A DNA stretch of 64,000 nt. Source: an uncultured Chthonomonas sp. (GTDB lineage Bacteria > Armatimonadota > Chthonomonadetes > Chthonomonadales > Chthonomonadaceae). Of this stretch, positions 26,329 to 51,668 are shown in pieces. Numbering within the stretch: the stretch's first letter is position 1; every line of letters begins with the position of its first letter. Made by a program: the position numbers and the translations under genes. The stretch spans positions 22,324-86,323 of the forward strand of contig CAIXIX010000588.1 in the NCBI GenBank assembly GCA_903919615.1, written 5' to 3'. Below the pieces are notes generated by a model that was given only the letters and a program-made list of their open reading frames with translations, searched no databases and was not told the DNA's origin.

Positions 26329-26338
26329 TATGGCCAGC

Positions 26339-35849: not shown

Positions 35850-35876
35850 CATCTTCCGCCTATGCGGATGTTCCCA

Positions 35877-35913
35877 CGTCTCCTTCCATCGGCCGGAACC
35901 GATAGAAGGAGAC
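35877..35913 (+). terminator. Hairpin after PEP-CTERM gene 34873..35849
   Basis: CGTCTCCTTCCATCGG-CCGGAA-CCGATAGAAGGAGACG with one internal mismatch. Confidence 0.5.
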
Positions 35914-35969
35914 GATGTGATTGGTATTTCTTGAAAAGACTCCGGTGTTACTGAATCGCAACAGTTTCT

Positions 35970-35988
35970 GTTACGCTCATGTTACGAT
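35970..35988 (+). promoter_or_regulatory. GTTACG direct repeats upstream of SBBP protein gene
   Basis: GTTACGCT, 3 nt, GTTACGAT, with 11-nt phasing. Lies 99-117 nt before ATG 36087. Confidence 0.3.
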
Positions 35989-36086
35989 GCGGCTGTAGCA
36001 TACTCCTGACAAGCGCACTCCACCCTTTGACAATCGCGTCGAAACTCACTCGACGGCTGAACTCGGGAGCCTTGTCGGGAGGGATC

Positions 36087-39000
36087 ATGCACCCCATATT
36101 CAAGACACTGGCAAGACTTCTGCTCTGCACAGCATTGTGCGCCACCAGCATCTGTTCAATGGCCGAAAGTCCTGCAGCGCACGTCAACAACAGCAGCAAG
36201 CCATCCATCCATGCGACGGTCTCAGGCCCAAAGGGCCGCCATCGTATCGTGAACGGCGGAGCCGCAAGCCGGCTTCGGCACATCCCGCTGGTTTTTGAAA
36301 CAAACCGCGGTCAGACAGATCCACGTGTAGCATTTTTGTCCCACAACGCAGGTTCGGGCCTGTTTCTCTCAGCTACCGAAGCCACCTTTTCTGCGCCTGC
36401 AACCGAGCCTAACAAGAAGGTTTCAACGATTCGTATGAACCTGTTGAAGGGTAATAGCCGTGCAGTTATGCACGGCGATGGAGTGGCGAGCAGTAAAGTT
36501 AACTACATCATCGGCAACGACCCAAAGCGATGGAAAACCGGTATCGAAGGCTACGGCCGTGTGCGCGCCGACAATGTCTATCCTGGAATTGACCTCGCAT
36601 ACTATGGCAACGAACAGCAGCTTGAATATGATTTCATTGTTGCACCCCACGCAGATCCAGACGCGATAAAGTTCGCATTTGATGGAGCCAGATCCGTTAA
36701 GCTGAACCATAAAGGCGACCTGATTATCAGTACACGGGGCAGCTTGATGAGCTGGCATCGCCCCGTAACGTATCAGCAGATTAATGGGAAGCGGGTTCCC
36801 ATAGATTCTCGATACACGCTTTCTCGAACAGCGACGATCCGAGCATCCGGTCGGCGAATTTCCGCCCACTCCTCGGTTCAGGTGGCGTTTGAGCTGGGCA
36901 GATACGATAGAACCAGACCTCTTATCATCGATCCGACGCTCGCCTACTGCTCCTATCTCGGCGGAAATGGTTCAGACCTCGTTACTGGCGCAGCCATGGA
37001 TGGTTCCAACCATTTCTATATTACTGGCCACACTTACTCTAACAATTTCCCAACGGTCAACGCCTATCAACCAACAAACCTGACCTATACGTCCAGCCCA
37101 TATTCCGGTGGTTTTACAGGCTTTATCGCCAAAATGGATCTATCGCGAGCCGGCGCGTCGTCAATGATCTACTGCACCTATATTGGGGGCACCCAGGGAG
37201 CCTGGCCATACGGCATCGCGGTTGATCCCACCGGCAACGCCTACATAACAGGAGGCACTGCGTCACCCGACTTCCCGCTTGTGAGAGCCTATCTTACATC
37301 CAACCCGGGAAGCCAGGGGTTTATCTTTAAGCTGAGTCCGGACGGCTCAACGCCCTTGTACTCGACGTTTTTTGGCGGCGCAACCGGCGGTGCTCCCCCT
37401 ACTGCAATTGCCGCAGATGGGTATGGGCAAGTTTACGTAGCCGGCACCACCTATGCGAGCGATCTGCCTACAAGCGTGACCTCTTTTAAAGCGCATACCG
37501 TAGGTTCATCCGCTTTTCTCGCCAAACTCAACACCCTCCTGTATGGCCCGGCATCCCTCATCTACTGCACATACATTGGTGATCCGACGATCCTTCTTGG
37601 CCGCGAAACCGCGACCGGGGTCGCTGTAGACAGCCTTGGCCACGCCTACATAACTGGAGTCACTCTTACCTCTACTTTTCCGATTCTCGGCGGATTTCAA
37701 TCGGGGTATGGCGGCAATACTCTGCGCGGCGCTGGCGACGGTTATCTTGTAAAACTCAACATCGGTGGGACGGGTCTGCTCTACTCCACCTTTATCGGCG
37801 GCACAGGGACTGATCAACCCAATGCGGTTACGGTGGATGCAACGGGAAACGCATTGGTCGTTGGGCAGACGGATTCGACCGACTTCCCGATTTACAATGC
37901 TTTCCAGCCAACAAACACATCCCTACTTTCGGCCTTCGTTACGAAAATCAATACGAATGCGGTCGGCAGCGCTTCTCTCATGTGGTCCACGTATCTTAGT
38001 GGTGGATACTACAACTACGCCTATTCGGCTGTCTACGATACTTCTGGAAATGTGTATGTTGGCGGTTCAACAACGTCTCTGGATTTTCCCGTTACACAGT
38101 TGTTTCCGCCAAATGTACCAGGACAGGGAGGAGCATTCGTCACAGAGATCGCCGCTGATGGGTCACATATAATGTACTCCACCGCTATCAGCGGGTGGAC
38201 CGGAGACTGCTTCGGCGGCTATATAGCGATTGATACGAGCGGGTCGATCTACCTGACTGGCTTCACGAGAGACGATTCGGGGCTGCCCATAACCTCTGCA
38301 AATGCGTTCCAGCCTGCCCATGCGAATGACGAATCTGCGCCCGGATATCTTGAGGACTGTTTCGTGGCTAAGATTGTGCCGGACTCACTAGACCTGGCTC
38401 TAACCGAAGTAAGCAGCGCTCCCGGAATTGCCCGCGGAAGCAGTGTTAAGTACACGCTTGCGGTCAAGAATAATGGGCCGGTTACGGCGACCAACGTGGT
38501 ACTGAGGGATGCGCTGACGAGCAACTTCGATCCCGATAGTCCGTTCAGTTTCGGCGTACTGAGCACGACAACTCCTCAGGGCTCCGTGACGGTATCAGGC
38601 GGAAATGTTACGTTCAATATAGGAACGATCAACTCAGGACAGACGATTGTGGTGACCGTCACGGTCGGCACATCGGGAGTTGGCTTCGGATCCATCACCA
38701 GCGCAGCGACAGTAACCTGTGATGAAAGAGATTCAAATCTAACAAACAACTCCGCATCCATAGGCACAAGCGTCTTAAGGCCCACTCCAACACTGCTGTT
38801 ACTAAACCCATCTACGGTATCGGCCGGAGGCGGTTCCTTTACACTAAACGTGACTGGAACAGATATCCCGAGTGGTGCGCAGGTAGCGTTCAACGGATCG
38901 ATACTGCCCGGAAGCGTTGTTCTCTCAAGCACCCAGATATCGGCGACGGTGCCTGGATCGCTGGTTACAACAGCGGGAACTGCACACATTACGATCGTAG

Positions 39001-39356
39001 GTCCATCCGGCGCTGTATCCAATGCCGGTGTGCTGCTCATTGGCACGCCTGCGCTGCGTGCTGCCGTAAGCGTTTCGCACATTCCGTTAGGCGGTTTCAA
39101 GGCAACCATCACCTTCACTAATTCGGGCTCGGGACCAGCAAACAGCATTCAGATTACTGGATGCACGCTGCATTCGATTGGCACCACAAGCTCTCTGCCA
39201 TATACCGTTGGGACACTGTCTGCGGGGAGTTCAGCAACCGCATACCTGAACTTCCCCAGTTCGGCTGGCTCCAGCGGACTGACGACAACGATGACAATCA
39301 CTGCTGCCTATGCCGGCGGAACCTTCTCCAGCACGGTGCGGGTTACGCTGCCGTAG
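36087..39356 (+). CDS. Large secreted SBBP beta-propeller-repeat protein with DUF11 and IPT/TIG-like domains
   Basis: ATG 36087 (GGGAGGG upstream) gives signal MHPIFKTLARLLLCTALCATSICSMA. Many units of the type GIAVDPTGNAYITGGTASPDFP. DUF11-like LAVKNNGPVTATNVVLRDAL. Ig-like C-terminal domains. Confidence 0.8.
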   Translation: MHPIFKTLARLLLCTALCATSICSMAESPAAHVNNSSKPSIHATVSGPKGRHRIVNGGAASRLRHIPLVFETNRGQTDPRVAFLSHNAGSGLFLSATEATFSAPATEPNKKVSTIRMNLLKGNSRAVMHGDGVASSKVNYIIGNDPKRWKTGIEGYGRVRADNVYPGIDLAYYGNEQQLEYDFIVAPHADPDAIKFAFDGARSVKLNHKGDLIISTRGSLMSWHRPVTYQQINGKRVPIDSRYTLSRTATIRASGRRISAHSSVQVAFELGRYDRTRPLIIDPTLAYCSYLGGNGSDLVTGAAMDGSNHFYITGHTYSNNFPTVNAYQPTNLTYTSSPYSGGFTGFIAKMDLSRAGASSMIYCTYIGGTQGAWPYGIAVDPTGNAYITGGTASPDFPLVRAYLTSNPGSQGFIFKLSPDGSTPLYSTFFGGATGGAPPTAIAADGYGQVYVAGTTYASDLPTSVTSFKAHTVGSSAFLAKLNTLLYGPASLIYCTYIGDPTILLGRETATGVAVDSLGHAYITGVTLTSTFPILGGFQSGYGGNTLRGAGDGYLVKLNIGGTGLLYSTFIGGTGTDQPNAVTVDATGNALVVGQTDSTDFPIYNAFQPTNTSLLSAFVTKINTNAVGSASLMWSTYLSGGYYNYAYSAVYDTSGNVYVGGSTTSLDFPVTQLFPPNVPGQGGAFVTEIAADGSHIMYSTAISGWTGDCFGGYIAIDTSGSIYLTGFTRDDSGLPITSANAFQPAHANDESAPGYLEDCFVAKIVPDSLDLALTEVSSAPGIARGSSVKYTLAVKNNGPVTATNVVLRDALTSNFDPDSPFSFGVLSTTTPQGSVTVSGGNVTFNIGTINSGQTIVVTVTVGTSGVGFGSITSAATVTCDERDSNLTNNSASIGTSVLRPTPTLLLLNPSTVSAGGGSFTLNVTGTDIPSGAQVAFNGSILPGSVVLSSTQISATVPGSLVTTAGTAHITIVGPSGAVSNAGVLLIGTPALRAAVSVSHIPLGGFKATITFTNSGSGPANSIQITGCTLHSIGTTSSLPYTVGTLSAGSSATAYLNFPSSAGSSGLTTTMTITAAYAGGTFSSTVRVTLP

Positions 39357-39415
39357 ATAGGTGATTAGGTAAGTTGGTAAATTGGTAATTGGGCGGTTTG
39401 ACGGATTGTTTATTG
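39357..39415 (+). repeat. G/T-rich short tandem tract, copy B5
   Basis: ATAGGTGATTAGGTAAGTTGGTAAATTGGTAATTGGGCGGTTTGACGGATTG, starting immediately after stop 39354-39356. Confidence 0.7.
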
Positions 39416-39433
39416 CAATTTGGTACTTGGACG

Positions 39434-39463
39434 GAAGCGGCGTCTATCGGTAGGCGCCGCTTC
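39434..39463. terminator. 9-bp hairpin between convergent genes
   Basis: GAAGCGGCG-12 nt-CGCCGCTTC, between stops 39356(+) and 39488(-). Confidence 0.5.
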
Positions 39464-39487
39464 TGAACCAAATCAAGACCAAAAACC

Positions 39488-42400
39488 CTACTCACTCAGC
39501 GCGATTTGTGCCGCGCTATTCAGATCCATACTGCCTCCTTGAAGAACTAATGCTCTAAAACGCGCTTCTCCTATCCCCTCAGCAATAGCTGCTGAGGTCC
39601 GGGTAAATCCGGATCCTGGAGGCGCAAGACGCAGCCGCATTCTCTCTGCAGCGCACCAGCCACAAAGCAGCGCAGCCTCCTCATTGAATCCAAGCAAGTT
39701 TCTGAGGTTCGCGCTTTCCTCAATACACTTGAGTATGCCGACTCGAAAGTCGATCTCAAGTGCGAGGTTGAGCGACTCATGGAGTGATGCCCGTGCCCTC
39801 TCGTACTGTCCAATTTTCATCGCTACAAGAGCGATCCCGGTATGCGCTTCGGATATTCCCCCCTTGCTGCCCGTCGACTGATGATGCTTGAGGGTAGCCG
39901 CAAAACAGGAGAGAGCCTCGCTATACTCTCCTCGCGCCAGGTGAACTTGACCCAATCCATATCTAGCCTCAAACTCCACCCGCGGTTGGCCGGTTTCAAT
40001 CGAGAGCTCTATTGCCTTAAGGCTGTTGGAATAAGCTGCGTCCAGATCGCCCATTTCTCGGTAGATATACTCTAGCCTCGATCGCACGTTGGCTTCGCTG
40101 TATTTGTTGCCAAGTCGCGTCACTAGTTCAACGGCTCTGAGGCATACAACCAGCGCGGCCTCCAAATCACCTTTGAGAATGTATACATATGCAAGAGCCG
40201 AGAGTGCGCGAGCAATCTGGCTGTAATTCTTCAGCTGTTCGAGCAGGTCCAAAACAATATTGAACAGCTTCTCAGCTTCATCAAGCTCATTAACCAATCT
40301 CGACATGTTGGCGAGGCAGAGCACTGTTCTGGCGTGCAACTCCGTGTTTTGTTGAATCCCCTTATGCTCGTAAGCCCTTCGAAGATAGTGCATTCCATGT
40401 ATGAAGTAGGATCGAACATGCCAGAACCGCTCAAGCCCACATGCTAAGCTTGCAGCGAGTTCGCCTCCATCTGGATCCAGTAACGTTATCTCAAGGGCGG
40501 AGCGTATATTGGCGTATTCTGCAGCGACCCAGGCAACGCCCTGTTCAATTGGCGCCGTCCACGAGTTCCAAAGGCGGTGGTTCAGGTAAGTTGCGAAGTT
40601 TCGAACGAGCCCACGATGCTCCGGCAATGCTCTCAGCTTTTCGCCGGCATATTCGCGGATTGTATCGAGCATTCTGTAGCGAACTGAATCTCCGACTCGT
40701 TCCATTACGATCAACGAGCGGTCTACCAGTGCGCTCACCAGATCCATAATGGCTTCACGTTTGAGGGATGGGTACAATTCGTTCCGCGTGAATTCGCCGA
40801 TAGAAGGTGAGTGAGAGGAGTCAAAATCTGGAGGCTGCGAACTGCAGACCTGCTCAGCAGCCTCGAGCGTCCATCCGCCTGTAAATTCTGCGAGATAGGC
40901 GAGCAGCTTTTTCTCATCCTCTGTGAGCAGGACATAGGACCAATCGACCAGAGCTCTTAAAGTCTGCTGCCGTGGCATTGCGACCCTGCTGCCCGTGGTT
41001 AAAAGGCTAAACCGATCATTCAGCCGAGACTCGATCTGCTCCGGCGACAGGCTGCGTGTTCGAACCGCAGCAAGCTCAATCGCGAGCGCAATGCCATCCA
41101 ATCGCCGGCAGATGTTTGCGATTGAAGCAAGGTTCACCTGCGTAACACGAAACGTGGAGTTTGCTTCACGTGCACGCTGAACAAATAGCTGCACGGAAGA
41201 GTAGTCCAGCACGGTATCAACGGTCGGCTTTGAAACGGCCCCGGCATCTCCCACACCAATAGCCGGAGGAATCTCCAGTGTGGGCACCTGAAATACGCGC
41301 TCCCCGGAAATGTTGAGAGGCTGGCGACTGGTAGCAATTACCTTGAGAAAAGGAACTGCCTGGATCAGTTTATGAACCTGTAGTGCGCATGCGTCGATCA
41401 GGTGTTCGCAATTGTCAAGAATAACCAGGGATCTGCACTCCGCAAGGTTTTTCACTATGGCTTCAGAGAGTTCTACACCAACCTGCTCCGAAATCCCGGC
41501 CGCCTCTGCCATTACAATCGGCAGCATCGTTGGCTCCGAAACTGAAGCGAGATCGACAAAGAGAATCCCGTCCGTGTAAATTGCGTTTTGATGCTGGGCG
41601 ACATCCAGAGCCAGTCGCGTCTTCCCGATACCACCAGGACCGGTGAGCGTAACCAGCTTCGTCGAATTCAACAGGGAGACCACTTCGAGACGGGCATCTT
41701 CACGGCCGAAAAGAGTGGTCAGTGGCCTTGGAAGCGGCTTGAATTGTGTTGGCGTATGTTGAGGATTCGCAAACGTGGAACAACCACTGTCAACTGCGCG
41801 TGCTTTGCTCCGTATTGGCTCTGAATGCTGCGGTAGTGTGTGTCGTTCTCGAAGGATTTCGAACAGGGCCTGAGTTTCGGCATCAGGCTGCGTATTGAGC
41901 TCACCATGAAGGAGGAGGCGCAAATCACGATATGCCTTTATCGCCTCCGGGACATTGCCTGAGTTTGAGAGCGCGTGCATCAGAGTACGGTACGCCGACT
42001 CGTTGAACGCATCGGACGCGATCAGCTGCCGGGCGAAACCTGCTGCCTGTAGCCATGCGCCGGATTCTAGTGCGCTTGCGGCGAGCGCATCGAGTGCTAA
42101 TGCGTATTGCTGTTCGCGCAGCACACGGGCAGGTATGGCCCACTCTTCCGGGCATTCGACCAGCAGTGGGCCGCGGTACAGCGAAACGGCCTGCTTGAGC
42201 GAAGCAATATCACCATTATACAGTAACTGATCGAACTCAGTCAGGTCACAGACGACGCCTTCTCGTTCCAGACAAATGGTGCGATAGGATTCGGATTGAA
42301 TAAGTCTGCGGTAATCGCCCAGGTCGTTGTTTAGGTCGCTCAAAGCTCGGCGAAGATAGTAACGCGCCATTCCGGTCTCGGCATCTGGCCATAGGGCAGT

Positions 42401-42595
42401 GGAGAGCCACGCCCTATCAACCGGTTTGCCAAGGTTGAGCGCAAGAAGGCCGAGAAGCCACTGCTCCTTCCGGGTCTTGAGGACCATTGGGCCAGCGCCA
42501 GACAGCTCCAGAATGCCAAATAGGTTGATTGTTAGTTGTGCGGGGTATGATGCGTTGGTGGCGCCAGGCATTAGCTTCTCCGGTCGGCTCGCCAT
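39488..42595 (-). CDS. AfsR-like regulator: SARP winged-helix + BTAD + NB-ARC (STAND) NTPase + TPR array
   Basis: N-terminal LTINLFGILELSG...LWPDAETGMARYYLRRALSDL (OmpR-type wHTH). BTAD helices AYRTLMHALSNSGNVPEAIKAYRDLRLLL. Walker A GPGGIGKTRLAL. Long TPR C-terminus. Alternative start ATG 42571 has a better GGAG. Confidence 0.85.
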   Translation of the reverse strand: MASRPEKLMPGATNASYPAQLTINLFGILELSGAGPMVLKTRKEQWLLGLLALNLGKPVDRAWLSTALWPDAETGMARYYLRRALSDLNNDLGDYRRLIQSESYRTICLEREGVVCDLTEFDQLLYNGDIASLKQAVSLYRGPLLVECPEEWAIPARVLREQQYALALDALAASALESGAWLQAAGFARQLIASDAFNESAYRTLMHALSNSGNVPEAIKAYRDLRLLLHGELNTQPDAETQALFEILRERHTLPQHSEPIRSKARAVDSGCSTFANPQHTPTQFKPLPRPLTTLFGREDARLEVVSLLNSTKLVTLTGPGGIGKTRLALDVAQHQNAIYTDGILFVDLASVSEPTMLPIVMAEAAGISEQVGVELSEAIVKNLAECRSLVILDNCEHLIDACALQVHKLIQAVPFLKVIATSRQPLNISGERVFQVPTLEIPPAIGVGDAGAVSKPTVDTVLDYSSVQLFVQRAREANSTFRVTQVNLASIANICRRLDGIALAIELAAVRTRSLSPEQIESRLNDRFSLLTTGSRVAMPRQQTLRALVDWSYVLLTEDEKKLLAYLAEFTGGWTLEAAEQVCSSQPPDFDSSHSPSIGEFTRNELYPSLKREAIMDLVSALVDRSLIVMERVGDSVRYRMLDTIREYAGEKLRALPEHRGLVRNFATYLNHRLWNSWTAPIEQGVAWVAAEYANIRSALEITLLDPDGGELAASLACGLERFWHVRSYFIHGMHYLRRAYEHKGIQQNTELHARTVLCLANMSRLVNELDEAEKLFNIVLDLLEQLKNYSQIARALSALAYVYILKGDLEAALVVCLRAVELVTRLGNKYSEANVRSRLEYIYREMGDLDAAYSNSLKAIELSIETGQPRVEFEARYGLGQVHLARGEYSEALSCFAATLKHHQSTGSKGGISEAHTGIALVAMKIGQYERARASLHESLNLALEIDFRVGILKCIEESANLRNLLGFNEEAALLCGWCAAERMRLRLAPPGSGFTRTSAAIAEGIGEARFRALVLQGGSMDLNSAAQIALSE

Positions 42596-42671
42596 GTGGC
42601 GCCCGGGGCGATGCAGTTCATCACCAGATCAGACATTTTACCCTCTTGTAATGCAATTGGCTTAGAATATG

Positions 42672-42703
42672 CCACGCTTTGTGACACGCTTGCCTGCGAA
42701 AAT
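42672..42703 (+). promoter_or_regulatory. CACGCTT direct-repeat box plus -10-like hexamer upstream of NHL PEP-CTERM gene
   Basis: CCACGCTTTGTGACACGCTTGCC. Heptamers at 42673-42679 and 42685-42691. After a 6-nt gap comes GAAAAT at 42698-42703. Confidence 0.55.
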
Positions 42704-42813
42704 ACAGTTGGTGCCGCCAAATGTGTGCTTCTCTGGAGCCATTGGCAAAGCATCCCAATCTCTGAGGCATCGTGCCGTACGATCTTGCGATTGACGGCAA
42801 CAGGAGGCAGGCA

Positions 42814-43752
42814 ATGCTTGTGCTTTCTAAGGCTTCGACAACATGTCGACGCGTTACATTCTCTCGATTCCAGTCTTTCTGCAGCTTAGCTGCGGTTGCT
42901 CTGCTTATTCTGTGCGCCGCCGAAGCGAATGCGCAATTTCTGTATGAATCTGATGCCGGCACCGGAACCATTAACAGGTTCACATCATCCGGCAGCAAGA
43001 GCGTCTTTGCGACGGGATTCTCCTCTCCGAGAGGCATTGTATTCGACAGCAGCGGAAATGCTTACATATCTGAATACGGAGCCGGAGACATTGTCAAGAT
43101 TGCACCAGGCGGAGGGAGAAGCATCTTTGTAAATGACATAACTCTTCCAGAAGGTCTGGCATGCGATAGCAGCGGAAATATCTACGTTGCGGATTATTGG
43201 ACCGGCAACGTCATAAAAATCACGTCTGGGGGTTCAGAATCAATCTTCGCTTCTGGGTTCAATTCACCGAAAGGTATTGCCCTCAATAGCAGTGGCGATC
43301 TCTTTGTGGCATCTGAAGGGGACAACGGCATCTATGAGGTTACTCCGGGAGGATCCGTATCATTATTCGCCTCAGAATCAGCGCCACAGCATGTCGCAGT
43401 CGATAGCCATGGAAACCTGTACGGTACCGTTCAGGACCCAGGTTCGGTTGTAGAGATCAGTCAGGGCGGAGCAAATACGACGATTGGCACCGGATTTACC
43501 TATCCGTGGGGAATCGCGATCGATCCCAGCAGCAATATCTTTGCTTCGGATCTGTACGGAGGCACAATCAAAGAGTACTTCGCCGGTGGAGGAAGCACGA
43601 CGTTCGCTTCAGGGCTCAGCTTACCTGCCGACCTTACATATGTCCCCGGGCCAGCCACGAGTTCTACTCCGGAGCCAGGGACCTTCGCGATGCTGATTTG
43701 TCTGGGAGTAACTGGCACGGCGGTGCTGCGCAAAAGACGCAGATCTGTTTGA
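42814..43752 (+). CDS. NHL-repeat beta-propeller PEP-CTERM protein
   Basis: ATG 42814 follows AGGAGG. Signal ends AEANA. Six units like SPRGIVFDSSGNAYISEYGAGDIVKIAPGG. C-terminus TPEPGTFAMLICLGVTGTAVLRKRRR. Confidence 0.85.
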   Translation: MLVLSKASTTCRRVTFSRFQSFCSLAAVALLILCAAEANAQFLYESDAGTGTINRFTSSGSKSVFATGFSSPRGIVFDSSGNAYISEYGAGDIVKIAPGGGRSIFVNDITLPEGLACDSSGNIYVADYWTGNVIKITSGGSESIFASGFNSPKGIALNSSGDLFVASEGDNGIYEVTPGGSVSLFASESAPQHVAVDSHGNLYGTVQDPGSVVEISQGGANTTIGTGFTYPWGIAIDPSSNIFASDLYGGTIKEYFAGGGSTTFASGLSLPADLTYVPGPATSSTPEPGTFAMLICLGVTGTAVLRKRRRSV

Positions 43753-43761
43753 GACAGCTAA

Positions 43762-43790
43762 TCCTGGGCTTACGCGCTGTGAGCCCAGGA
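43762..43790 (+). terminator. Hairpin after NHL PEP-CTERM gene
   Basis: TCCTGGGCT-11 nt-AGCCCAGGA, 10 nt after stop 43752. Confidence 0.5.
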
Positions 43791-43998
43791 GCATGACAGA
43801 TAGCGCCCACCCTATGATAGTTTGTTCCACCTTATTGCCACAGGTTCGCACATCGCTCACATCCGGCAGGGAACGCATTTACTGTTCCCCCTTCCTTGAT
43901 CCCTTTTCCCTAAACGCGGTTTCCGCCAAACACGATGTATAATCTTTTTTGCTTTTGCAGCATCCATTTAGCAACTCAGACCACGCCCGGGAGTATCT

Positions 43999-44826
43999 AT
44001 GAATACTATCGCTCACCTTAACCCTGCCCTTGTGTCTCTGATTACGCAGATCGGTTCTCAGGTATTTGGAGCGATCCTGCTATGGATCGTTGGCCGATGG
44101 TTAATCGGATTTACAGTCCGCCTTGCAAACGCCGCATTAAATCGCCAGAAGGTCGATCCAACCCTGGCCAGTTATGTAATCTCGTCGCTCACTGGCCTGC
44201 TAAATGTGGTTCTGATCATCTCGATCCTTGGCGCGTTCGGCGTACAGACAACGACCTTTGCAGCAATCTTCGCTGCTTTCGGTCTGGCGATAGGCACCGC
44301 CTGGGGAGGGCTGCTCTCGAACTTCGCGGCAGGCGTGTTTATGGTGGTGCTGCGGCCGTTCAAGGTAGGTGAATTTATTGAAGCTGGAGGCGTCGTTGGC
44401 ACGGTCGTAGAGATCGGCCCTTTTGTCACCAAGATCAACGCGCCGGATAACGTTCTGAATATTGTAGGCAACAGCAAGATCTTCGCAGACAATATCAAGA
44501 ACTACTCCTTTAATGCCTATCGGCGAGTCGAGCTTGTGATGCAGCTCAATCACAATGCGAATGTTGGTGAAGTGATGACGCTATTAAAGTCGCGCCTCTC
44601 CGAGATCCATAACGTGATGACAGACCCGTCGCCCGATGTGGAGATCCTGGAGTTCAACCTCAGTGGACCCAAGCTTGCAGTGCGGCCCTACTGCCACAAT
44701 AAAGACTACTGGCAGGTCTACTTCGATACAAACCGATCCATCAACGACCTCGCTGCTGAGCAAGGTTACAGCACTCCGGAACAGCACCTGGTTATCCGAA
44801 GTGTGAGCGAAGTGAAAGCTGGCTAA
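43999..44826 (+). CDS. Small-conductance mechanosensitive channel (MscS family)
   Basis: Three N-terminal TM helices, then the MscS core GGLLSNFAAGVFMVVLRPFKVGEFIEAGGVVGTVVEIGPFVTKI. Confidence 0.85.
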   Translation: MNTIAHLNPALVSLITQIGSQVFGAILLWIVGRWLIGFTVRLANAALNRQKVDPTLASYVISSLTGLLNVVLIISILGAFGVQTTTFAAIFAAFGLAIGTAWGGLLSNFAAGVFMVVLRPFKVGEFIEAGGVVGTVVEIGPFVTKINAPDNVLNIVGNSKIFADNIKNYSFNAYRRVELVMQLNHNANVGEVMTLLKSRLSEIHNVMTDPSPDVEILEFNLSGPKLAVRPYCHNKDYWQVYFDTNRSINDLAAEQGYSTPEQHLVIRSVSEVKAG

Positions 44827-44998
44827 GAAGAGGGATGAGGTACGAGGGAAATGGGAACTGCGCACAATACAAGCAGCCGTTACCTCTGTTAGTGATCGGG
44901 ACCAGGGCATTGTTGGAGGGGAGGCGCATCGTGATTGATGTTCCGCCCCTTTTTTGTTGGTCCGCACTATCTCGATTAGACAAGTCATCCTCTGTTTA

Positions 44999-45030
44999 CC
45001 ACGCTTTGTGACACGCTTGCCCTTTATACG
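44999..45030 (+). promoter_or_regulatory. CACGCTT direct-repeat box plus -10-like hexamer upstream of HAF PEP-CTERM gene
   Basis: The same 23-mer as at 42672-42694. Heptamers at 45000-45006 and 45012-45018. After a 6-nt gap comes TATACG at 45025-45030. Confidence 0.55.
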
Positions 45031-45153
45031 GCCTCTGTTAGCTGCTTTTCGTCCCTTTTCACACATACTAGCCGGATTATCCATGATATCCAGATTTCGC
45101 GGCCGCAGCAAGCGGCGACCCTGCCAGGGATAATCGAGCAAGGAGGCCGTTCC

Positions 45154-45537
45154 ATGTTTTCTTTCACCACAACGCGCTCGCGAAGAAACTGTTTCAGGCT
45201 GTATTCAGCATTGGCTACAGTTTCTCTTCTTATGTGCGTAAGTCAAGCTCACGCTCAGTTCAAGATTCTGGACGATCCACTTGGAACCATCTACACGAGC
45301 CCAAACGGGATATCAGGTTGCATCGTCGTTGGCGACTATTATAGCCTGGCCGGGCAGCACGGTTATCTGTACAACATCTACGACGGGCAGTACACCACGT
45401 ACGATGTGCCAGTATTGGGCGCGCAACAGACGCAGATCAAGGCTGTAGACGGAAACGAATTCGTTGGTACGTTTTACGATAGCAGCAACCATATGCACGG
45501 TTTCGAAGACAGCTTTGGTGGAATACAGGGTGGCTAA
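45154..45537 (+). CDS. Short HAF-like repeat secreted protein, truncated by TAA just before its PEP-CTERM signal
   Basis: AAGGAGG RBS and a signal ending AHA. QFKILDDPLGT...GISGCIVVGDYY is paralogous to 34873..35849. The ORF ends at TAA 45535-45537. Confidence 0.7.
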   Translation: MFSFTTTRSRRNCFRLYSALATVSLLMCVSQAHAQFKILDDPLGTIYTSPNGISGCIVVGDYYSLAGQHGYLYNIYDGQYTTYDVPVLGAQQTQIKAVDGNEFVGTFYDSSNHMHGFEDSFGGIQGG

Positions 45538-45636
45538 CCCACACCTACCACTCCGGAGCCAGATGCTCTTGCCACCGTGCTTGGCCTCGGCATCACTGCT
45601 ATTGCTGCCATTCGGAAGCGGAGAAATATGCGCTGA
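45538..45636 (+). other. Orphan in-frame PEP-CTERM coding tail
   Basis: Directly after TAA 45535-45537, in the same frame: PTPTTPEPDALATVLGLGITAIAAIRKRRNMR, then TGA. This is a complete PEP motif with TM helix and basic tail. Confidence 0.7.
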
Positions 45637-45971
45637 GCGGCATTCGAAGCTATCCTCTTTACGAGACAGCAAGATAATTCAGGGGTTATGCCCGACTGAA
45701 GGAAGTTGACATGCGCAAAGGTGGCAACCTGGAATTCGTTCGCCCGGCAGGGCTCAGGCATGGCGCTCCCACACCACGCGCATTACCTTCGGCTGAGCGC
45801 GCCCAATTCCGACACCAATTAACGAATCTTGATTCGCCATGCTGGGCACGGGCGGATTAGAGTGCTCCCGACCACGCCTACTGCGCAAGATTATCCCATA
45901 GGGTAAAATTCCGAGTTACCACGACGTCGGCTCAACCTAATCTGAAGGACCTGGGTAGGAGATATATCAGC

Positions 45972-46502
45972 ATGGCGAAGTTGATCTTTGAAATGAACCA
46001 GTCGTTGGATGGCTACGTCGACCATTTAAAATTCAGGCCAGATCCTGCGCTCTTTCATCACTTCATCGAGCATTTACGCGACCTGACGGGTTGTGTGTAC
46101 GGTCGCCGCATTTACGAGATAATGCGTTACTGGGAAGAAGACCAGCCAGGCTGGGACGACGGCGATCGCGAATTTGCAGCGGTATGGCGAAACCAAACTA
46201 AGTGGATCGTGTCACGCACGTTGAAGTCGGTCGGGCCTAACGCCACACTTATCCAGGATGATCTCGAGTCGGTAATGCGTGGGCTGAAGGCAACGCTCGA
46301 TGGAGAGATTGCAGTAGCGGGGACAGAACTGGCAGGAAGCCTAACCGACCTTGGACTTATTGATGAGTATCGACTCTACATCCACCCCATAGTTCTCGGC
46401 AGCGGCACGCCCTTCTTCGCCGGTCCCCGGCCGCCGCTGCGCCTGGTATCCAGCGATCGGTTTGGCGAGAACGTGATCAGGTTAATTTACGTTCCTGCTT
46501 AA
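45972..46502 (+). CDS. Dihydrofolate reductase-family (RibD C-terminal domain) protein
   Basis: MAKLIFEMNQSLDGYV start, then GRRIYE, IAVAGTELAGSL and LIDEYRLYIHPIVLGSGTPFF, typical of the family. Confidence 0.8.
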   Translation: MAKLIFEMNQSLDGYVDHLKFRPDPALFHHFIEHLRDLTGCVYGRRIYEIMRYWEEDQPGWDDGDREFAAVWRNQTKWIVSRTLKSVGPNATLIQDDLESVMRGLKATLDGEIAVAGTELAGSLTDLGLIDEYRLYIHPIVLGSGTPFFAGPRPPLRLVSSDRFGENVIRLIYVPA

Positions 46503-46529
46503 TCTCGGACTGAGGCGCATATTATCACT

Positions 46530-46883
46530 ATGGACTCAAACGAAACCCCCGAAATAGACCCGCTTGCTGCATTCGGAGTACTCGATCTGCGCGTGGGAAG
46601 AATCATTCGCGCTGAATTTAACGCGAAGGCCAGGAAACCCGCGTACAAGCTTTGGATCGACTTTGGCCCACTTGGCGAGCGCACGTCCTGCGCCCAGATC
46701 ACGGAGCTTTACACACCGGACGATCTCGTGGGCAGACTGATTGTTGCCGCCGTTAATCTAGGCTCTCGCTTAATCGCCGGCTTCAGGTCTGAGGCGCTTG
46801 TGATGGGCGCAGCAGATAGCGAAGGACGCGTGGTGCTGCTTGCAGTAGAACGCGATTTAGGACCCGGTGGGAAGGTTTATTGA
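46530..46883 (+). CDS. csaA: tRNA-binding domain protein (CsaA-like)
   Basis: FGVLDLRVGRIIRAEFNAKARKPAYKLWIDFG...VAAVNLGSRLIAGFRSEALVMG matches the CsaA / EMAP-type OB fold. Confidence 0.75.
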   Translation: MDSNETPEIDPLAAFGVLDLRVGRIIRAEFNAKARKPAYKLWIDFGPLGERTSCAQITELYTPDDLVGRLIVAAVNLGSRLIAGFRSEALVMGAADSEGRVVLLAVERDLGPGGKVY

Positions 46884-46932
46884 TGGTGACCGGTACCCAA
46901 GTAAGGTTCGCCCAGTAAGTGTGATCTTAACA

Positions 46933-46962
46933 GGACCGGGATGGAATAAACCATCCCGGTCC
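46933..46962 (+). terminator. 12-bp perfect hairpin after the csaA-like gene
   Basis: GGACCGGGATGG-AATAAA-CCATCCCGGTCC followed by AGATTGTTG. Confidence 0.6.
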
Positions 46963-47230
46963 AGATTGTTGCAGGCGATCGGCTACATTGCTGGACAGCA
47001 GCTCTTCTTTGTTGACGCGCACTTCTTTACAGGCGCCTTGTCGATGAATTTCTCAAGCGGTTTGTGGTCCATCGGGCAAATGTACAGGATCGGTCGGCAG
47101 CGTTAGGGACATTGAGGTCATTGATGTCTCGTATTCAGCACTCATGGGCCGGTCTTGCCCGTTGGAATACTTTGCGTGACTTTTTTTGGTTGAGGCTGCG
47201 CTGCCTTATGTCCTTGCAGTTGCGCTCTGA

Positions 47231-50200
47231 TTAATGATCAGTTTCCAACAACGTGCCTACTTCGGCAAGGCAGTCGGCCCACGGATGCTCTTCTGATTGG
47301 CTCTCGTTGCTGCTTGACGACGTCAGGCGCTCCGGGCCGACTTTCTCCCAATACTCATCTACTATCCTAATTTCGTAAGGCATTAGCTCATATCCTAACT
47401 CAGCGTGGAGCGCAGTTGCCGATCCAAGCAGACGAAGTGCCGATTGGTTTTGGCCCTGTTCGATCGCGACACCGCATGCAATGATAAAGCCACACCATAT
47501 TGCACGACGCTGATCCGTGCGTATAGCCCTATCCCATACTGACTGACACAACGAACACGCGGCCTGGCTATCCTGTCTCATCATCGCGACAAGAGCCCTC
47601 ACGAGTACATTAGAAATCGCAATTTCAGATCTGGATGTGAGCTTCCCTATCTCCACGCTGTAATGGTCAACTTCCGCTCGATCTTCGCAACACAGCGCTA
47701 GTTTCAATCCCTGAATGAGCAGCTCTTTGCGGAGCCCCTTCCATTCTGGGGGACACATTGCGAGGGTCTCCTCCAGGCTGGCTTTTGCCTGGGAATAGTC
47801 TCTTTCAAATAACGCCAGCGTTACGTACTCCTGCCGAACATTGATCTGATTAATGACAGACGACTGAATGGAAGCTGCATATGTCATCGCCTCATCTAAC
47901 AGCTGCCTGCCTGCCTGATGCTCGCCGGTTTCGATGTGAATGCGTGCCAGACATGTGGCGGCCGCGCAGATATGCTCCTTATCACCTATCTCGCGATACG
48001 TCTCAAGGCTCATCGTTGCTTGATGCCGGGCAGATTTGACTAGTCCCTGCCAGTGCCGAATATCAGCGAGCGCCAATCGAAGTTTCGCTGTGCCCCAAGG
48101 ATCGTTTTTCTTGCGAGCGATACAGGTTTCAAGAAGTGCTCCAGAACGATCAAGATCCCCCTGTTCCGTATGGTGACCCGCCAGGTAAGCCATCGCGAGC
48201 AATACACCGTATTCATTGCCCTGTTGTGTGTATGCCACCAGCAACTCTTCGAGAATTTCTAAGCGTGTCTCCGGAAATTCCTCCAGCCCGCTAAGAGCCA
48301 GCAACGCCTCGGTGAATAGGGGATCGTTCTGTCTGTCTCGCAGCTCCCTGACAAGACTTCGAAGAATTTCGCGCCGTAACCCTGCCGTATCAGCATTGTG
48401 CGAATTCACCGTAATCGAAAGGCGCATTCCATGTGGAAGGGCTAGCTCCTGGCTTCGTACAAATGCCCGTTCCGCCCATTCTGTTCGCTCCTGCGGAAAT
48501 CCACGAACTTTCCAAAACCAGTCCATGTCGATAGCGAGCCTTAGCCCCGTCATTATGTCGCCGGCGGAAAAAGTGTGGCGCAATGCGGCTCGCAGATTTT
48601 CGCGCTCGCGTTCCAGCATATCGAGGTTTTTCGCTATTTCGTGTGCCTCACGTGGCTGAGAGGGCTCACAAAGAATGCGGAGGCGATTTAGGTGCACCTG
48701 ATAATAGGTAGCGTGAAGGTCCTGAAGGGTGCATCTCGAGTTGTAGTCTATCTGCTCCCAGGCGAATTCGCGCAGCGTTTCAAGCAGTCTAAAGCGCGGT
48801 TCGCCATCGATATCATCGCAACATGGCAGCGATTGTTCCTGTAACTCGATCAGAAGCGATCCTGCCGCGGCTGTCAATTCCTGAGAATTATCACCATCGC
48901 GCAGACAGATTGCGGCTGCGGCCTCGACAGTCCAACCGCCATGAAAGACTGAGAGAGCAGTAAAGAACGCCTGTTGTGGTGGTGTGAGCAGATTGTAGCT
49001 CCACTCCATTGTGGCTCGAAGGCATCGGTGACGAGGCGCCAGGTCCTGGTGTCGACCGCTAAGCCCCGCGAGATGTTGCTCCAACTGTGCTCGCATACGC
49101 GCCGGAGGAACGGTTCGTGCCCACGCTGCAGCCATCTCGATTGCGAGCGGCAAGCCTTCCAGCCGTCGGCACAGCGCAGCAACATGTTCAGCGTTGCCTG
49201 CAGTGAGCTCAAAATCCGGCTTTACTGCCTGTGCCCTGTCTACGTAAAGTGCTACGCAATCGAGTGCCTGAAGATTATTAATATTTTGGTGCTGCGACGG
49301 CACGGAAAGTGGTGAGATAGCGAATTCGCGTTCGCCATTCAAGCAAAGCGAGCGGCGAGAAGTAATCAGGCAAGTGAGAGCTGGCGCGCACTCCAATAGA
49401 GCACGTACAAATGCTGCGCCGTTAACGGGTCGACCATCACTCTCAATGGCGTCGCTTACGTCCTGCTTTAGAAGTTGCTCGTAGTTATCCAGTACCAGTA
49501 ATGTTGGCGCAGAACCAAGTGCACGAGCGATTAAGTCCATCACATTGATGCCAGGTTCCACTGTTAAATTTAGTGCCCCGGCCAGCGCAAAGGGAAGCAA
49601 GCGTGGATGCGAAATATCCGCCAGGCCAACATATCGGACGCCTCCTGGGAAGACACCGGCAAGTCGTTCAGCGACTTCTATCGACATCCGCGTCTTACCA
49701 ACACCTCCGGGCCCAGTTAAAGTGAGAAGCCGCAGCGCAGGCTTTGCAATTGGAGACAGGAGCACCGTGATTCGCTCAATCTCGATCTTTCGCCCAAAGA
49801 ACTGAGTTAGGCAGAGAGGCAATGCTGATCGAGGTGAACTAGTGGCAGTAGTGCTGCGCTGTTCAACCGCAGCATCACGCTGGACTTCTGCACCACGGGG
49901 CAGGTCGATTGGCGTGGATACCTGATGTTGAAAGGAGCCCGGATCCTGGCGAATGCGCTGCACCAGGTCCGAAACGATAGGTCTAGGAGCGAGGTTCAGA
50001 TCCGCTAGAAGTCGTCTGGATAGAACTTGCATTGACTCCAATGCTTCTGCAGTCCGACCCATACCGGCGAGTATTCGCATCTTTGCCGCACATGCAGCTT
50101 CGTCGTAACAATCGACTGCGATGGCGCAGTTAGCCGCATGCAGCGCAGATGGCAGATCCCCCAGTTGCTCGCAAGAATCAACCAGCATGGATAGGGCGGC

Positions 50201-50683
50201 GGAATACGTCAACGCTAGCTGTGCGCGCGCTTCGACTGCCCAATCGGCATATATTCCAGGCAGCAGCTCAGCCGTGTAGAGCTCCCTCGCCTGATCCAGT
50301 AGAGTTCGGCGATGCGCGTGCGCCTGTGTCTGGCCGGCCAGGCGGATCCGTTTTTCGAACTCACTGACATCTGTTGTAAAGGCACCTGTGTTGAGCGATA
50401 TTGTATGACGGTCCGCCATTACAATGTTTGTACCAACCTCACCTAGCGAGTTGAATAGACGACGCAAGCTGGCAAGGGTGGTACTAAGGTTATCTCGACC
50501 AGCGCCTTCATCCAGATGCGACCAGAAGATTTCAACCAGTTGTTCGCGCGGATGAGCACGCGGATACAAAGCCAGATAAGCCACCAGTGCACCCGCCTTG
50601 TTGGCGGGGATCTGAATTGCTTCTCCGTCTGCACCTGCCATGCGTGGTCCGCCCAACAGCTCAATATGTATGCAGCCAGTCAT
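47231..50683 (-). CDS. AfsR-like regulator: SARP winged-helix + BTAD + NB-ARC (STAND) NTPase + TPR array (second copy)
   Basis: IHIELLGGPRMAG...QLVEIFWSHLDEGAGRDNLSTTLASLRRLF (wHTH). BTAD helices ACAAKMRILAGMGRTAEALESMQVLSRRL. Walker A GPGGVGKTRMSI. Long helical-repeat C-terminus. Confidence 0.85.
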   Translation of the reverse strand: MTGCIHIELLGGPRMAGADGEAIQIPANKAGALVAYLALYPRAHPREQLVEIFWSHLDEGAGRDNLSTTLASLRRLFNSLGEVGTNIVMADRHTISLNTGAFTTDVSEFEKRIRLAGQTQAHAHRRTLLDQARELYTAELLPGIYADWAVEARAQLALTYSAALSMLVDSCEQLGDLPSALHAANCAIAVDCYDEAACAAKMRILAGMGRTAEALESMQVLSRRLLADLNLAPRPIVSDLVQRIRQDPGSFQHQVSTPIDLPRGAEVQRDAAVEQRSTTATSSPRSALPLCLTQFFGRKIEIERITVLLSPIAKPALRLLTLTGPGGVGKTRMSIEVAERLAGVFPGGVRYVGLADISHPRLLPFALAGALNLTVEPGINVMDLIARALGSAPTLLVLDNYEQLLKQDVSDAIESDGRPVNGAAFVRALLECAPALTCLITSRRSLCLNGEREFAISPLSVPSQHQNINNLQALDCVALYVDRAQAVKPDFELTAGNAEHVAALCRRLEGLPLAIEMAAAWARTVPPARMRAQLEQHLAGLSGRHQDLAPRHRCLRATMEWSYNLLTPPQQAFFTALSVFHGGWTVEAAAAICLRDGDNSQELTAAAGSLLIELQEQSLPCCDDIDGEPRFRLLETLREFAWEQIDYNSRCTLQDLHATYYQVHLNRLRILCEPSQPREAHEIAKNLDMLERERENLRAALRHTFSAGDIMTGLRLAIDMDWFWKVRGFPQERTEWAERAFVRSQELALPHGMRLSITVNSHNADTAGLRREILRSLVRELRDRQNDPLFTEALLALSGLEEFPETRLEILEELLVAYTQQGNEYGVLLAMAYLAGHHTEQGDLDRSGALLETCIARKKNDPWGTAKLRLALADIRHWQGLVKSARHQATMSLETYREIGDKEHICAAATCLARIHIETGEHQAGRQLLDEAMTYAASIQSSVINQINVRQEYVTLALFERDYSQAKASLEETLAMCPPEWKGLRKELLIQGLKLALCCEDRAEVDHYSVEIGKLTSRSEIAISNVLVRALVAMMRQDSQAACSLCQSVWDRAIRTDQRRAIWCGFIIACGVAIEQGQNQSALRLLGSATALHAELGYELMPYEIRIVDEYWEKVGPERLTSSSSNESQSEEHPWADCLAEVGTLLETDH

Positions 50684-50809
50684 CTATTCAACCTTCACAC
50701 ATCCCATTCTGCTCAAAGGCTGGTTCCAAGCCGATCATGGAGCGAGCAATCTCATGCGGTAAGGACCAAAATGGTTCATTGCTTGTTGCCCGGCATGCGT
50801 AAATAACCT

Positions 50810-50849
50810 CTTCGGAAATGCTTCGGAGTTATTTCAGAGTTCTTACGGA
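50810..50849 (+). promoter_or_regulatory. CTTCGGA heptamer direct repeats upstream of CBM PEP-CTERM gene
   Basis: CTTCGGA (50810-50816), 4 nt, CTTCGGA (50821-50827), then a degenerate CTTACGGA at 50842-50849. Phasing is 11 and about 21 nt. Confidence 0.4.
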
Positions 50850-50940
50850 GATGCCAATTATACTGGTGGAAGTGGCAAGTGCGGCGTATCCGCAGCTGCC
50901 TGGAAACACCTCTATACTTTGCAATGGAAGGATATTGCTA

Positions 50941-51504
50941 ATGCATCTCAGAAAGCTATGCCTTGCTGCACTGTTCGTTGGCGCAACATCTATGGCCCAT
51001 GGCCAAAACCTCGTTCAAAATCCCGGTTTCGAAACTGGAGATCTAACTGGTTGGGCGACAGTCGGCCCTGTCACAGTAGGTACTCCAGGAATTACGGGTT
51101 CATCTGCAGCCTATTTCGCTCAGGGCAATGCGTTCACTGACACGCTGACGCAGACATTGGCCACAACGACAGCAGCGGACTACGACGTCAGTTTCAATCT
51201 TCAAGGCACCAGCCAATTTGTAGACCTTCGAGTATACCTTGGGACCGGAGGTTTTCCAATCTACGAAGGGTTCGGCGCGCAAGATGGAGTGCACAACTTT
51301 ACCTATACTGCCACTACAAACAGCGACAATCTAGAGTTCTGGGCCGACTTCACTGGTGACACGTTTCTGCTTGACAATGTGAGTGTAACGCCACACACCA
51401 CTCCCTCCAGCACTCCTGAACCTGGCTCAGTTGCTCTTCTCATCGGGTTGAGCGCTACAGGAGCTGGTTTCCTCGGCCGCACTCGCCTACGAAAAACCCG
51501 TTAG
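50941..51504 (+). CDS. PEP-CTERM protein with CBM4/9-like carbohydrate-binding beta-sandwich
   Basis: ATG 50941 gives signal MHLRKLCLAALFVGATSMAHG. NLVQNPGFETGDLTGWATVG is a CBM-like opening. C-terminus TPEPGSVALLIGLSATGAGFLGRTRLRK. Confidence 0.8.
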   Translation: MHLRKLCLAALFVGATSMAHGQNLVQNPGFETGDLTGWATVGPVTVGTPGITGSSAAYFAQGNAFTDTLTQTLATTTAADYDVSFNLQGTSQFVDLRVYLGTGGFPIYEGFGAQDGVHNFTYTATTNSDNLEFWADFTGDTFLLDNVSVTPHTTPSSTPEPGSVALLIGLSATGAGFLGRTRLRKTR

Positions 51505-51546
51505 GCAACTAGCGTCGCCCAATCTGGCGTTTCTACGATGCGGACA

Positions 51547-51582
51547 CCTAATCCAACAACTATCTCAGGTTGTTGGATTAGG
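51547..51582 (+). terminator. 14-bp perfect hairpin after PEP-CTERM gene 50941..51504
   Basis: CCTAATCCAACAAC-TATCTCAG-GTTGTTGGATTAGG. Confidence 0.55.
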
Positions 51583-51624
51583 AAACCTTGCCGGTGCCTC
51601 TGATGCCCGCATGGCAGGCAAAGT

Positions 51625-51650
51625 GTCCTGTCACCTAACGCCTGAAAGCC
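51625..51650 (-). repeat. G/T-rich short tandem tract, copy B6
   Basis: Minus sense reads GGCTTTCAGGCGTTAGGTGACAGGAC, 18 nt after stop 51669. It shares the exact 13-mer TTCAGGCGTTAGG with 26297-26309. Confidence 0.7.
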
Positions 51651-51668
51651 AACATCTTTTCGTGCTCC

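Follow-up and report, generated by a model that had tools for sequence, protein, structure and literature searches.

In a 64,000-nt stretch of DNA from an uncultured Chthonomonas sp. (contig CAIXIX010000588.1; hereafter the window), a short element of two tandem 12-bp units with the core CACGCTT (the box) lies upstream of four genes for secreted proteins with a PEP-CTERM tail. We consider it likely that this element is the activator-binding part of activator-dependent σ70-type promoters, bound by an AfsR-like regulator of the SARP-NOD-TPR type. An earlier interpretation made from the letters of the window (the sequence-only reading) had described two of the copies as SARP boxes. This interpretation is supported, as every element of it that could be checked held and the box recurs beside homologous regulators in two genomes. 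From its place before the four genes and, above all, from this recurrence, the box is very probably the site at which these regulators, studied so far almost solely in actinomycetes that make antibiotics, bind and switch on neighbouring genes.

Sequence and copies of the repeat

The starting point was a 23-mer, CCACGCTTTGTGACACGCTTGCC, which had been reported on the plus strand at 42672-42694 and 44999-45021. An exact search found the two copies to be identical, and no third copy was present in the window with up to three mismatches (0 expected from 100 shuffles). The direct repeat of the heptamer CACGCTT with 12-nt start-to-start spacing was also found inside the 23-mer as described. Scanning the window for CACGCTT-N5-CACGCTT gave two additional copies with one mismatch each, CACGCTTtttgcCACGGTT at 34761-34779 on the plus strand and AACGCTTtttgcCACGCTT at 34627-34609 on the minus strand. 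The total with at most one mismatch was thereby four sites, compared to 0.023 expected analytically and 0.033 in a first-order Markov simulation. The spacer between the heptamers was 5 nt in all window copies, and other spacers were not seen. The 5 nt preceding the first heptamer resemble this spacer (TnTGm), which makes two tandem 12-bp units with the consensus TnTGm-CACGCTT the best description of the element. The boxes are as follows.

42668-42691, plus strand: box 1, units TATGC-CACGCTT and TGTGA-CACGCTT, heptamers at 42673-42679 and 42685-42691
44995-45018, plus strand: box 2, heptamers at 45000-45006 and 45012-45018
34756-34779, plus strand: box 3, heptamers CACGCTT at 34761-34767 and CACGGTT at 34773-34779
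34609-34632, minus strand: box 4, heptamers AACGCTT at 34627-34621 and CACGCTT at 34615-34609

All four boxes are intergenic and on the coding strand, and they begin 112-154 nt before a start codon. Box 1 sits in the divergent spacer between the gene of regulator 1 and gene g1 (both described below). A third repeat unit at -12 or -24 from the box was absent. A palindrome in copies 1 and 2, GTGaCAC, was considered and rejected, as copies 3 and 4 do not preserve it.

It could be argued that the copies are chance matches or remnants of local duplications without function, given that copies 1 and 2 are identical and that copies 3 and 4 share their spacer. Against chance stand the four sites where about 0.02-0.03 would be expected and the -10-like hexamer at a fixed offset (see below). 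Against duplication, the sequence identity breaks off at the edges of the box and the flanking DNA is unrelated, so that neither a recent duplication nor a duplication scar is indicated. Together with the recurrence of the box in two other genomes, by which it is effectively refuted, this leaves the explanation with next to no probability.

Promoter geometry

The hexamers GAAAAT and TATACG had been noted exactly 6 nt past the second heptamer of the 23-mers. Both lie at this distance, and boxes 3 and 4 are followed by hexamers at the same gap.

42698-42703, plus strand: -10-like GAAAAT, 6 nt past box 1, 4/6 match to TATAAT
45025-45030, plus strand: -10-like TATACG, 6 nt past box 2
34786-34791, plus strand: -10-like GATAAT, 6 nt past box 3
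34597-34602, minus strand: -10-like GATACT, 6 nt past box 4

When 30 offsets were tested, hexamers with at least 4/6 matches to TATAAT were present in all four sites only at the 6-nt gap; at each of the other 29 offsets, 0 or 1 of the four sites had such a hexamer (background frequency 2.3-3.1%). As a control, the distinct box-like chance matches collected from scans of public data were examined, and a -10-like hexamer at gap 6 was found in ~3 of ~45. At the expected -35 position, 16-18 bp upstream of the hexamer, the sequence reads ACGCTT or CGCTTT, with 0-1 matches to TTGACA as judged by eye. An extended -10 of the TGn type, also judged by eye, is present in copy 1 only and not consistent across the sites. 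Such a poor -35 region at the window boxes is typical of activator-dependent promoters. A promoter-scanner prediction in copy 1, GTGACA-16-TACAGT, was not reproduced in the other copies and was set aside.

We infer that transcription starts ~7 nt after the hexamer, and all box coordinates relative to the start assume this position. This would put the heptamers at about -37 to -31 and -25 to -19, with the whole box covering about -40 to -19. The classical layout of a SARP site was thereby recovered in one part and not in the other. With the start so placed, direct heptamer repeats on one strand overlap the -35 region in six sites, the four of the window and two from other genomes described below. 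In contrast, all six have a period of 12 bp and a gap of 6 bp to the -10, where a classical SARP box has an 11- or 22-bp period and its 3' repeat 8 bp from the -10.

Other ways of reading the promoter were weighed at this point. A block kept at -37 to -7 before genes of related secreted proteins resembles the regulon of a sigma factor of extracytoplasmic function (ECF), and heptamer 1 lies ~18 bp from the hexamer, so that the block might be the recognition sequence of an alternative sigma factor of the ECF or another group. One -35 plus one -10 element would leave the internal tandem repeat unexplained, and no sigma-factor gene was found in the window. The usual -10 of ECF promoters is of the CGTC type, but here it is TATAAT-like. 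We therefore regard a sigma factor of this kind as quite improbable. A σ54 promoter was rejected: none of the four window boxes has the invariant GG, copies 1 and 2 also lack the GC at -12, σ54 consensus-like sites numbered 39 compared to 38.4 expected, and only copy 3 comes within 2 mismatches of the consensus.

The box could also be an operator, where a protein bound at -40 to -19, SARP-like or not, represses a constitutive promoter. Repressors do bind at sites overlapping the core promoter, as this one does, and some proteins of the SARP family act negatively; the relevant passages on GSU1771 of Geobacter describe it as a negative regulator of biofilm formation (PMC10599522). However, neither a recognisable -35 nor a consistent TGn extended -10 was visible by eye, so that the naked promoters should be weak and there would be little to repress, and SARP sites at such a position activate (PMC10936776). 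Repression is thus improbable in our judgement, and we return to the box as an activator site.

Around the boxes, a GCAAtTG-like element ([GA]CAAnT[GC]) is partly conserved ~20 nt upstream of each window box, at about -57 to -51 (42653-42659, 34742-34748, 34647-34641 on the minus strand, and 44980-44986). Its role could be that of an UP-like element or of a site for a further protomer, or it could belong to the divergent promoter. The A/T-rich sequence GAATATGC directly adjoins three of the window boxes. A degenerate repeat with 12-nt period, CGCACTTTTTGTAACGCTTTTTGTA, at 1337-1355 on the minus strand precedes a RoxA-like cytochrome c gene by ~100 nt. Compared to the box it has 3 mismatches, a -10 at gap 6 is missing, and its score is under the threshold of the position weight matrix (PWM) described below; it is probably not functional.

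Genes downstream of the boxes

All four boxes point at genes for secreted proteins with a PEP-CTERM tail.

42814-43752, plus strand: g1, secreted NHL/ScyE-like beta-propeller with PEP-CTERM tail, predicted target of box 1
45154-45636, plus strand: g2, HAF-like secreted protein with the PEP-CTERM tail after a TAA, predicted target of box 2
34873-35849, plus strand: g3, HAF-like PEP-CTERM protein, paralogue of g2, predicted target of box 3
33817-34479, minus strand: g4, secreted PEP-CTERM protein of 220 aa, predicted target of box 4

The window contains six PEP-CTERM genes among ~55 genes. Four of the six follow a box, and no box stands before any other gene. An extension of 8 kb to the left of the window contained neither a PEP-CTERM gene nor a box. 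PEP-CTERM gene starts had been placed at 42814 and 45154. The first is upheld by profile scores, as g1 reached 21.1 bits with Pfam (cut-off 20.7) and 19.4 bits with TIGR02595 (cut-off 16). The second begins an interrupted gene: in g2 an in-frame TAA (45535-45537) separates the body from the PEP-CTERM tail TPEPDALATVLGLGITAIAAIRKRRNMR, and the gene is called as 127 aa in all assemblies. The arrangement of PEP motif, hydrophobic helix and Arg-rich tail is present above the TIGR02595 cut-off in g1 and in g4 (19.6 bits, cut-off 16). Genes g2 and g3 have clear TPEP...RKRR and RRR tails by inspection, though both are disrupted, g3 by a frameshift near 35035-35045; its split into 56 + 234 aa recurs in other assemblies. 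Since the same gene calls were made in several independent assemblies, the disruptions of g2 and g3 look real and not like assembly errors. Decay or tail-less secreted variants are possible explanations.

AfsR-like regulators in the window

Regulators were searched by Pfam annotation of the larger open reading frames (ORFs) of the window, of which 37 were submitted. Two DNA-binding regulators were found, both AfsR-like and each divergent from a PEP-CTERM gene.

39488-42571, minus strand: regulator 1, AfsR-like, with SARP module (winged helix and BTAD), NOD ATPase and TPR, 1027 aa, proposed box-binding activator
47231-50683, minus strand: regulator 2, AfsR-like, with SARP module and AAA_16, divergent from the PEP-CTERM gene g5 (50941-51504)

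That the box adjoins the gene of a SARP-type regulator (39488-42571, or to 42595, on the minus strand) was borne out by comparison of both sequence and structure. In Pfam, regulator 1 matched BTAD (E = 3e-20, residues 130-247), AAA_22/NB-ARC and several TPR families, and weakly Trans_reg_C (E = 0.008). With phmmer, residues 6-243 matched EmbR (2FEZ, E = 6.7e-5) and residues 35-237 matched AfsR (8HVR, E = 1.6e-4); the N-termini of both regulators align to AfsR (8HVR, 8K60) over ~240 residues. An AlphaFold2 model of regulator 1 was built with 64 homologues (mean predicted local distance difference test score 89.9). Its N-terminus consists of a beta-sheet, three helices and a wing, and the segment 109-245 is all-helical. 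Comparison with the SARP domain of AfsR in the initiation complex 8K60_I gave a template modelling (TM) score of 0.73 over 250 columns, and comparison with EmbR a root mean square deviation of 3.8-4.0 Å. For the rest of the protein, Foldseek matched the STAND-TPR protein 6MFV, Apaf-1 and plant NLRs, and the Walker A residues G313, G314, G316, K317 and T318 are invariant across 65 homologues. Regulator 1 thus has the OmpR-type winged helix directly followed by BTAD that defines SARPs, and also the central NOD/NB-ARC STAND ATPase with Walker A and the C-terminal TPR of the large AfsR type. In regulator 2, only the SARP module and the ATPase domain were detected. For both regulators the top NCBIfam match was the AfsR model, far under its equivalog cut-off (for regulator 1, 82 bits vs 1430), so that regulator 1 is to be seen as a homologue and not as an equivalog of AfsR.

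The search for homologues of the regulator returned 7922 sequences at E <= 1e-20, none of them above ~38% identity. The named relatives of regulator 1 come from metagenome-assembled genomes (MAGs) of Chthonomonadaceae/Chthonomonadales (Armatimonadota), and relatives carry the JGI label 'predicted ATPase/DNA-binding SARP family transcriptional activator'. Where SARPs are described as actinobacterial and as belonging to secondary-metabolite clusters, the relatives here are from Armatimonadota and the neighbours are PEP-CTERM and HAF genes.

Conservation in other Chthonomonadaceae genomes

The contexts of three homologous regulators were compared, namely the loci L074 (regulator P0010), L075/L076 (P0083) and L077 (P0013). 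Regulators ~36% identical to regulator 1 carry the layout of heptamer, 5 nt, heptamer, 6 nt and hexamer in two other Chthonomonadaceae MAGs. In L074 (GCA_025963795.1), the divergent spacer gcgaCACGCTTtgcgaCACGCCTtaccgaGATAATagg contains CACGCTT-tgcga-CACGCCT-taccga-GATAAT. This site is oriented towards the divergent neighbour, whose repeat-rich product has a hydrophobic and probably membrane-anchoring segment in its interior. In L075/L076 (GCA_035653075.1), the divergent spacer gatGACGCTTtgaatGACGGTGgtccgcGATACTgtttccagcgaaggaggcagcgATG contains GACGCTT-tgaat-GACGGTG-gtccgc-GATACT, pointing at a HAF-repeat protein (TIGR02913, 3e-70). Neither target has a PEP-CTERM tail. A PWM derived solely from the four sites of the window scored the L074 site with 30.0 and the L075 site with 19.3, compared to a maximum of 15.5 in 40 random 20-kb sequences. 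Each of the two boxes was the single top match in its ~20-kb locus and is oriented away from the regulator. Both genomes have ~60% GC, and their conservation relative to the window is limited to the box. Across the alignment of all six sites, no variation was seen in ACGCTTT, in the second ACG, in both A's of the hexamer and in 3 scattered columns upstream of the box.

Between the end of the L075 hexamer and the start codon there are 22 nt, enough for a Shine-Dalgarno leader only, which argues strongly that the hexamer is a -10 element. The predicted 5' leaders comprise ~75-117 nt for the four window targets vs ~16 nt for the L075 target. No motif or Rfam family common to the predicted leaders was found, and known RNA families gave no match at E <= 1 over 33000-52000. 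Random scattering of boxes, also within genes, had been named as an outcome that would speak against a regulatory role. Over ~72 kb of this genome and ~66 kb from the three related loci, two of which have a box, the boxes were intergenic and not inside genes.

Recognition helix and specificity

The segment compared was the one aligned with the recognition helix of AfsR, including the base-contacting residues T88 and R92 of AfsR (PMC10936776). Helices and boxes pair as follows.

Regulator 1: helix ARYYLRRALSDL (YYLRR, residues 71-75), box CACGCTT / CACGCTT
P0010: helix ALYYLRRSLSNL (YYLRR), box near-identical to that of regulator 1
P0083: helix AYANLRNALTDL (ANLRN), diverged box GACGCTT / GACGGTG
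P0013: helix ALHSLRQSLTDL (HSLRQ), no box

A Tyr at the second Y position of YYLRR is present in 13 of the 65 aligned sequences. In this small sample of sequences, the covariation of helix and box, as would be predicted for a cognate pair of protein and site, is a hint in that direction. YYLRR could accordingly serve as a sequence marker for paralogues that use the CACGCTT box.

Regulator 2 reads NLSTTLASLRRL in the same segment and probably has a DNA specificity different from that of regulator 1; the region upstream of g5 is without a CACGCTT box. In that region (50810-50864), CTTCGGA occurs at 50810 and 50821, i.e. with an 11-nt period. The pair is followed by CTTACGGA, with its 3' end 22 nt further on, and by TATACT 9 nt later. 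Taken alone the CTTCGGA repeat is statistically weak (p about 0.08). Given the different recognition helix of regulator 2, the repeat may be a box of its own for this protein.

Scans of public collections

A genome collection scanned with the pattern TRCMACGCTTTNTGNCACGNTT gave 36 scattered single matches, about the estimated chance number. Many of them were coding coincidences, such as a deaminase TLYVTLEPC motif, one conserved coding sequence of Armatimonadota and a permease ORF in L018. The pattern was over-specified and would miss the L074 and L075 sites. In a metagenome scan with a K-restricted pattern, all 25 matches lay in long stop-free stretches (90-1032 codons), with the exception of the contig L042. 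A scan of viral contigs with a pattern from all six sites gave 0 matches, and no box was present around the genes of the three proteins most similar to the HAF-like target (P0122-P0124).

L042, an unrelated contig with 59% GC (JGI Ga0307472_100163795), has three perfect tandem 12-mers ACGCTTTGTGCC at its end (1555-1600), in intergenic DNA following an ABC-permease gene. Unit and period are as in the box, and there is no -10 at the usual gap.

Elsewhere in the window, at 20072-29437 and 52611-57654, three giant proteins of the PSCyt1/PSCyt2/PSD1 type (DUF1549/DUF1553) are encoded, with a DUF1501 gene beside or near each. This reiteration is typical of genomes of the Planctomycetota, Verrucomicrobiota and Armatimonadota type.

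Proposed mechanism and alternatives

In the mechanism that we propose, the tandem 12-bp units at about -40 to -19 would replace the -35 hexamer, with a GATAAT-like -10 following 6 bp on. Two winged-helix SARP modules would bind the two units head-to-tail, the candidate binder in the window being the product of the adjacent gene at 39488-42571. By analogy to AfsR, the bound SARP modules would recruit RNA polymerase via σ region 4 and the core enzyme, and the NOD/TPR sensor part would gate this activity on a ligand or signal. In AfsR, the NOD/TPR part is inhibitory. Thereby, single-gene operons for secreted or cell-surface proteins would be switched on, in the window four PEP-CTERM genes and in the relatives a HAF-repeat protein and a repeat-rich membrane-anchored protein. 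The identity of the box binder, activation rather than repression, the transcription start and the signal are parts of this scheme that we infer.

Several observations weigh against the scheme. The 12-bp period and the 6-bp gap depart from the classical 11 or 22 bp and the canonical 8 bp. Two PEP-CTERM genes of the window are without a box, one at 50941-51504 beside regulator 2 and one at 11073-11678. The regulator family is very large, and the binding paralogue is therefore not assignable with certainty. One of the three homologue contexts, L077 (P0013), has no box, and its regulator is not divergent from a neighbour. All known sites amount to six in three genomes of uncultured organisms (MAGs), and scans of public collections with over-specified patterns gave no further bona fide sites. 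Finally, activators of the OmpR/PhoB type share the geometry of the box.

The last point leads to the alternative that the site is a real activator site bound by another tandem-binding factor encoded elsewhere, e.g. a response regulator of the OmpR/PhoB family, with the SARP-like gene being a neighbour or a co-regulated target. In pho boxes, as in other OmpR/PhoB sites, direct repeats of 7 bp with ~4-bp spacers replace the -35. Regulator 1 is 2.4-8 kb away from boxes 2-4, only part of the source genome is known, and AfsR and PhoP are documented to share a site (PMC10972967), all of which would suit such a factor. On the other hand, neither a response regulator nor another transcription factor was detected in the 64-kb window, two other genomes keep the box precisely in the spacer between a homologous SARP-like gene and its divergent neighbour, and the recognition helix co-varies with the box. 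We therefore judge another factor unlikely and keep the AfsR-like regulator as the favoured binder.

More broadly, and with considerable reserve, it is conceivable that Chthonomonadales expanded AfsR-like SARP-NOD-TPR sensors into many modules of one sensor and one neighbouring surface-protein gene, which would use a common CACGCTT box of 12-bp period tuned by few residues of the recognition helix. Such modules would represent a non-proteobacterial control of PEP-CTERM and HAF genes and would make SARP sigma adaptation ancient and widespread. If this were true, sigma adaptation by SARPs would not be an antibiotic speciality of actinomycetes.

Comparison with known systems

The element is a candidate operator, defined by sequence and conserved across genomes, and links up with AfsR-like regulators of a phylum that has hardly been studied. 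It provides a first concrete DNA target outside actinobacteria for testing the AfsR mechanism, in which tandem winged helices replace -35 recognition. Structural and biochemical work could set its 12-bp period, as a clean variable, against the 11 bp of the afs box, and the box could help to predict regulons of many STAND-type regulators in MAGs of Armatimonadota. In the library searched, no paper was found that links Armatimonadetes with SARPs, and two contain both SARP and PEP-CTERM; in one of these, the PEP-CTERM mention proved to be a reference-list citation.

The afs box bound by AfsR extends from -40 to -19 around a centre at -29.5. Its mode of action is sigma adaptation, with AfsR contacting σ region 4 and core RNA polymerase instead of -35 recognition taking place (PMC10936776). 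Like the Streptomyces promoters of AfsR, ActII-ORF4, DnrI, RedD and PimR, the promoters described here have heptamer-type repeats on one strand at -40 to -19 and a box that overlaps or replaces a poor -35 next to a recognisable -10. As in Streptomyces AfsR, winged helix and BTAD are followed by NOD and TPR, and the regulator gene adjoins its target. Differences from the Streptomyces boxes are the 12-bp period instead of 11 or 22 bp (10-bp variants are known), the gap of 6 instead of 8 bp and the core CACGCTT instead of a TCGAG-type core or CGTT(T/C)ATCG. Since SARP heptamer repeats have spacers of 4-15 nt (PMC10972967), the 5-nt spacer of the window falls within this range and the 12-bp period is still in the broad SARP range. 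SARPs have been regarded as exclusive to actinobacteria in a 2024 review (PMC10972967), whereas the hosts here are Chthonomonadaceae-like Armatimonadota and the targets are PEP-CTERM and HAF genes and not antibiotic clusters. The departures from the SARP family as described are thus the 12-bp period with the 6-bp gap, the phylum and the cell-surface targets.

The winged helices of OmpR and PhoB bind tandem 7-bp repeats head-to-tail, substitute for the -35 and contact σ region 4. Their boxes resemble the one described here in having tandem 7-bp direct repeats in place of the -35. They differ in that no regulator with a receiver domain is encoded nearby, the neighbour having BTAD, NOD and TPR instead, and in that the period is 12 bp and not 11. 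GSU1771 of Geobacter sulfurreducens (PMC10599522) is likewise a non-actinobacterial protein with SARP-type winged helix and activator domain and with biofilm and surface functions. It has a receiver domain instead of NOD-TPR, and the relevant passages of that paper describe no binding box.

With regard to the target genes, a parallel is the σ54 element of the PrsR/PrsK/PrsT system (Haft et al. 2006, PMC1569441). Both systems have a common cis-sequence before single-gene PEP-CTERM operons with long upstream regions, and both include a TPR-containing component. The PrsR system uses σ54 -24/-12 promoters with an enhancer and an NtrC-like regulator, whereas the promoters here are σ70-like and the candidate regulator is of the SARP/STAND type. 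Regulatory motifs of PEP-CTERM genes outside Proteobacteria were still open according to Haft et al. (PMC1569441), and the box described here, together with its candidate regulator, bears on this gap.

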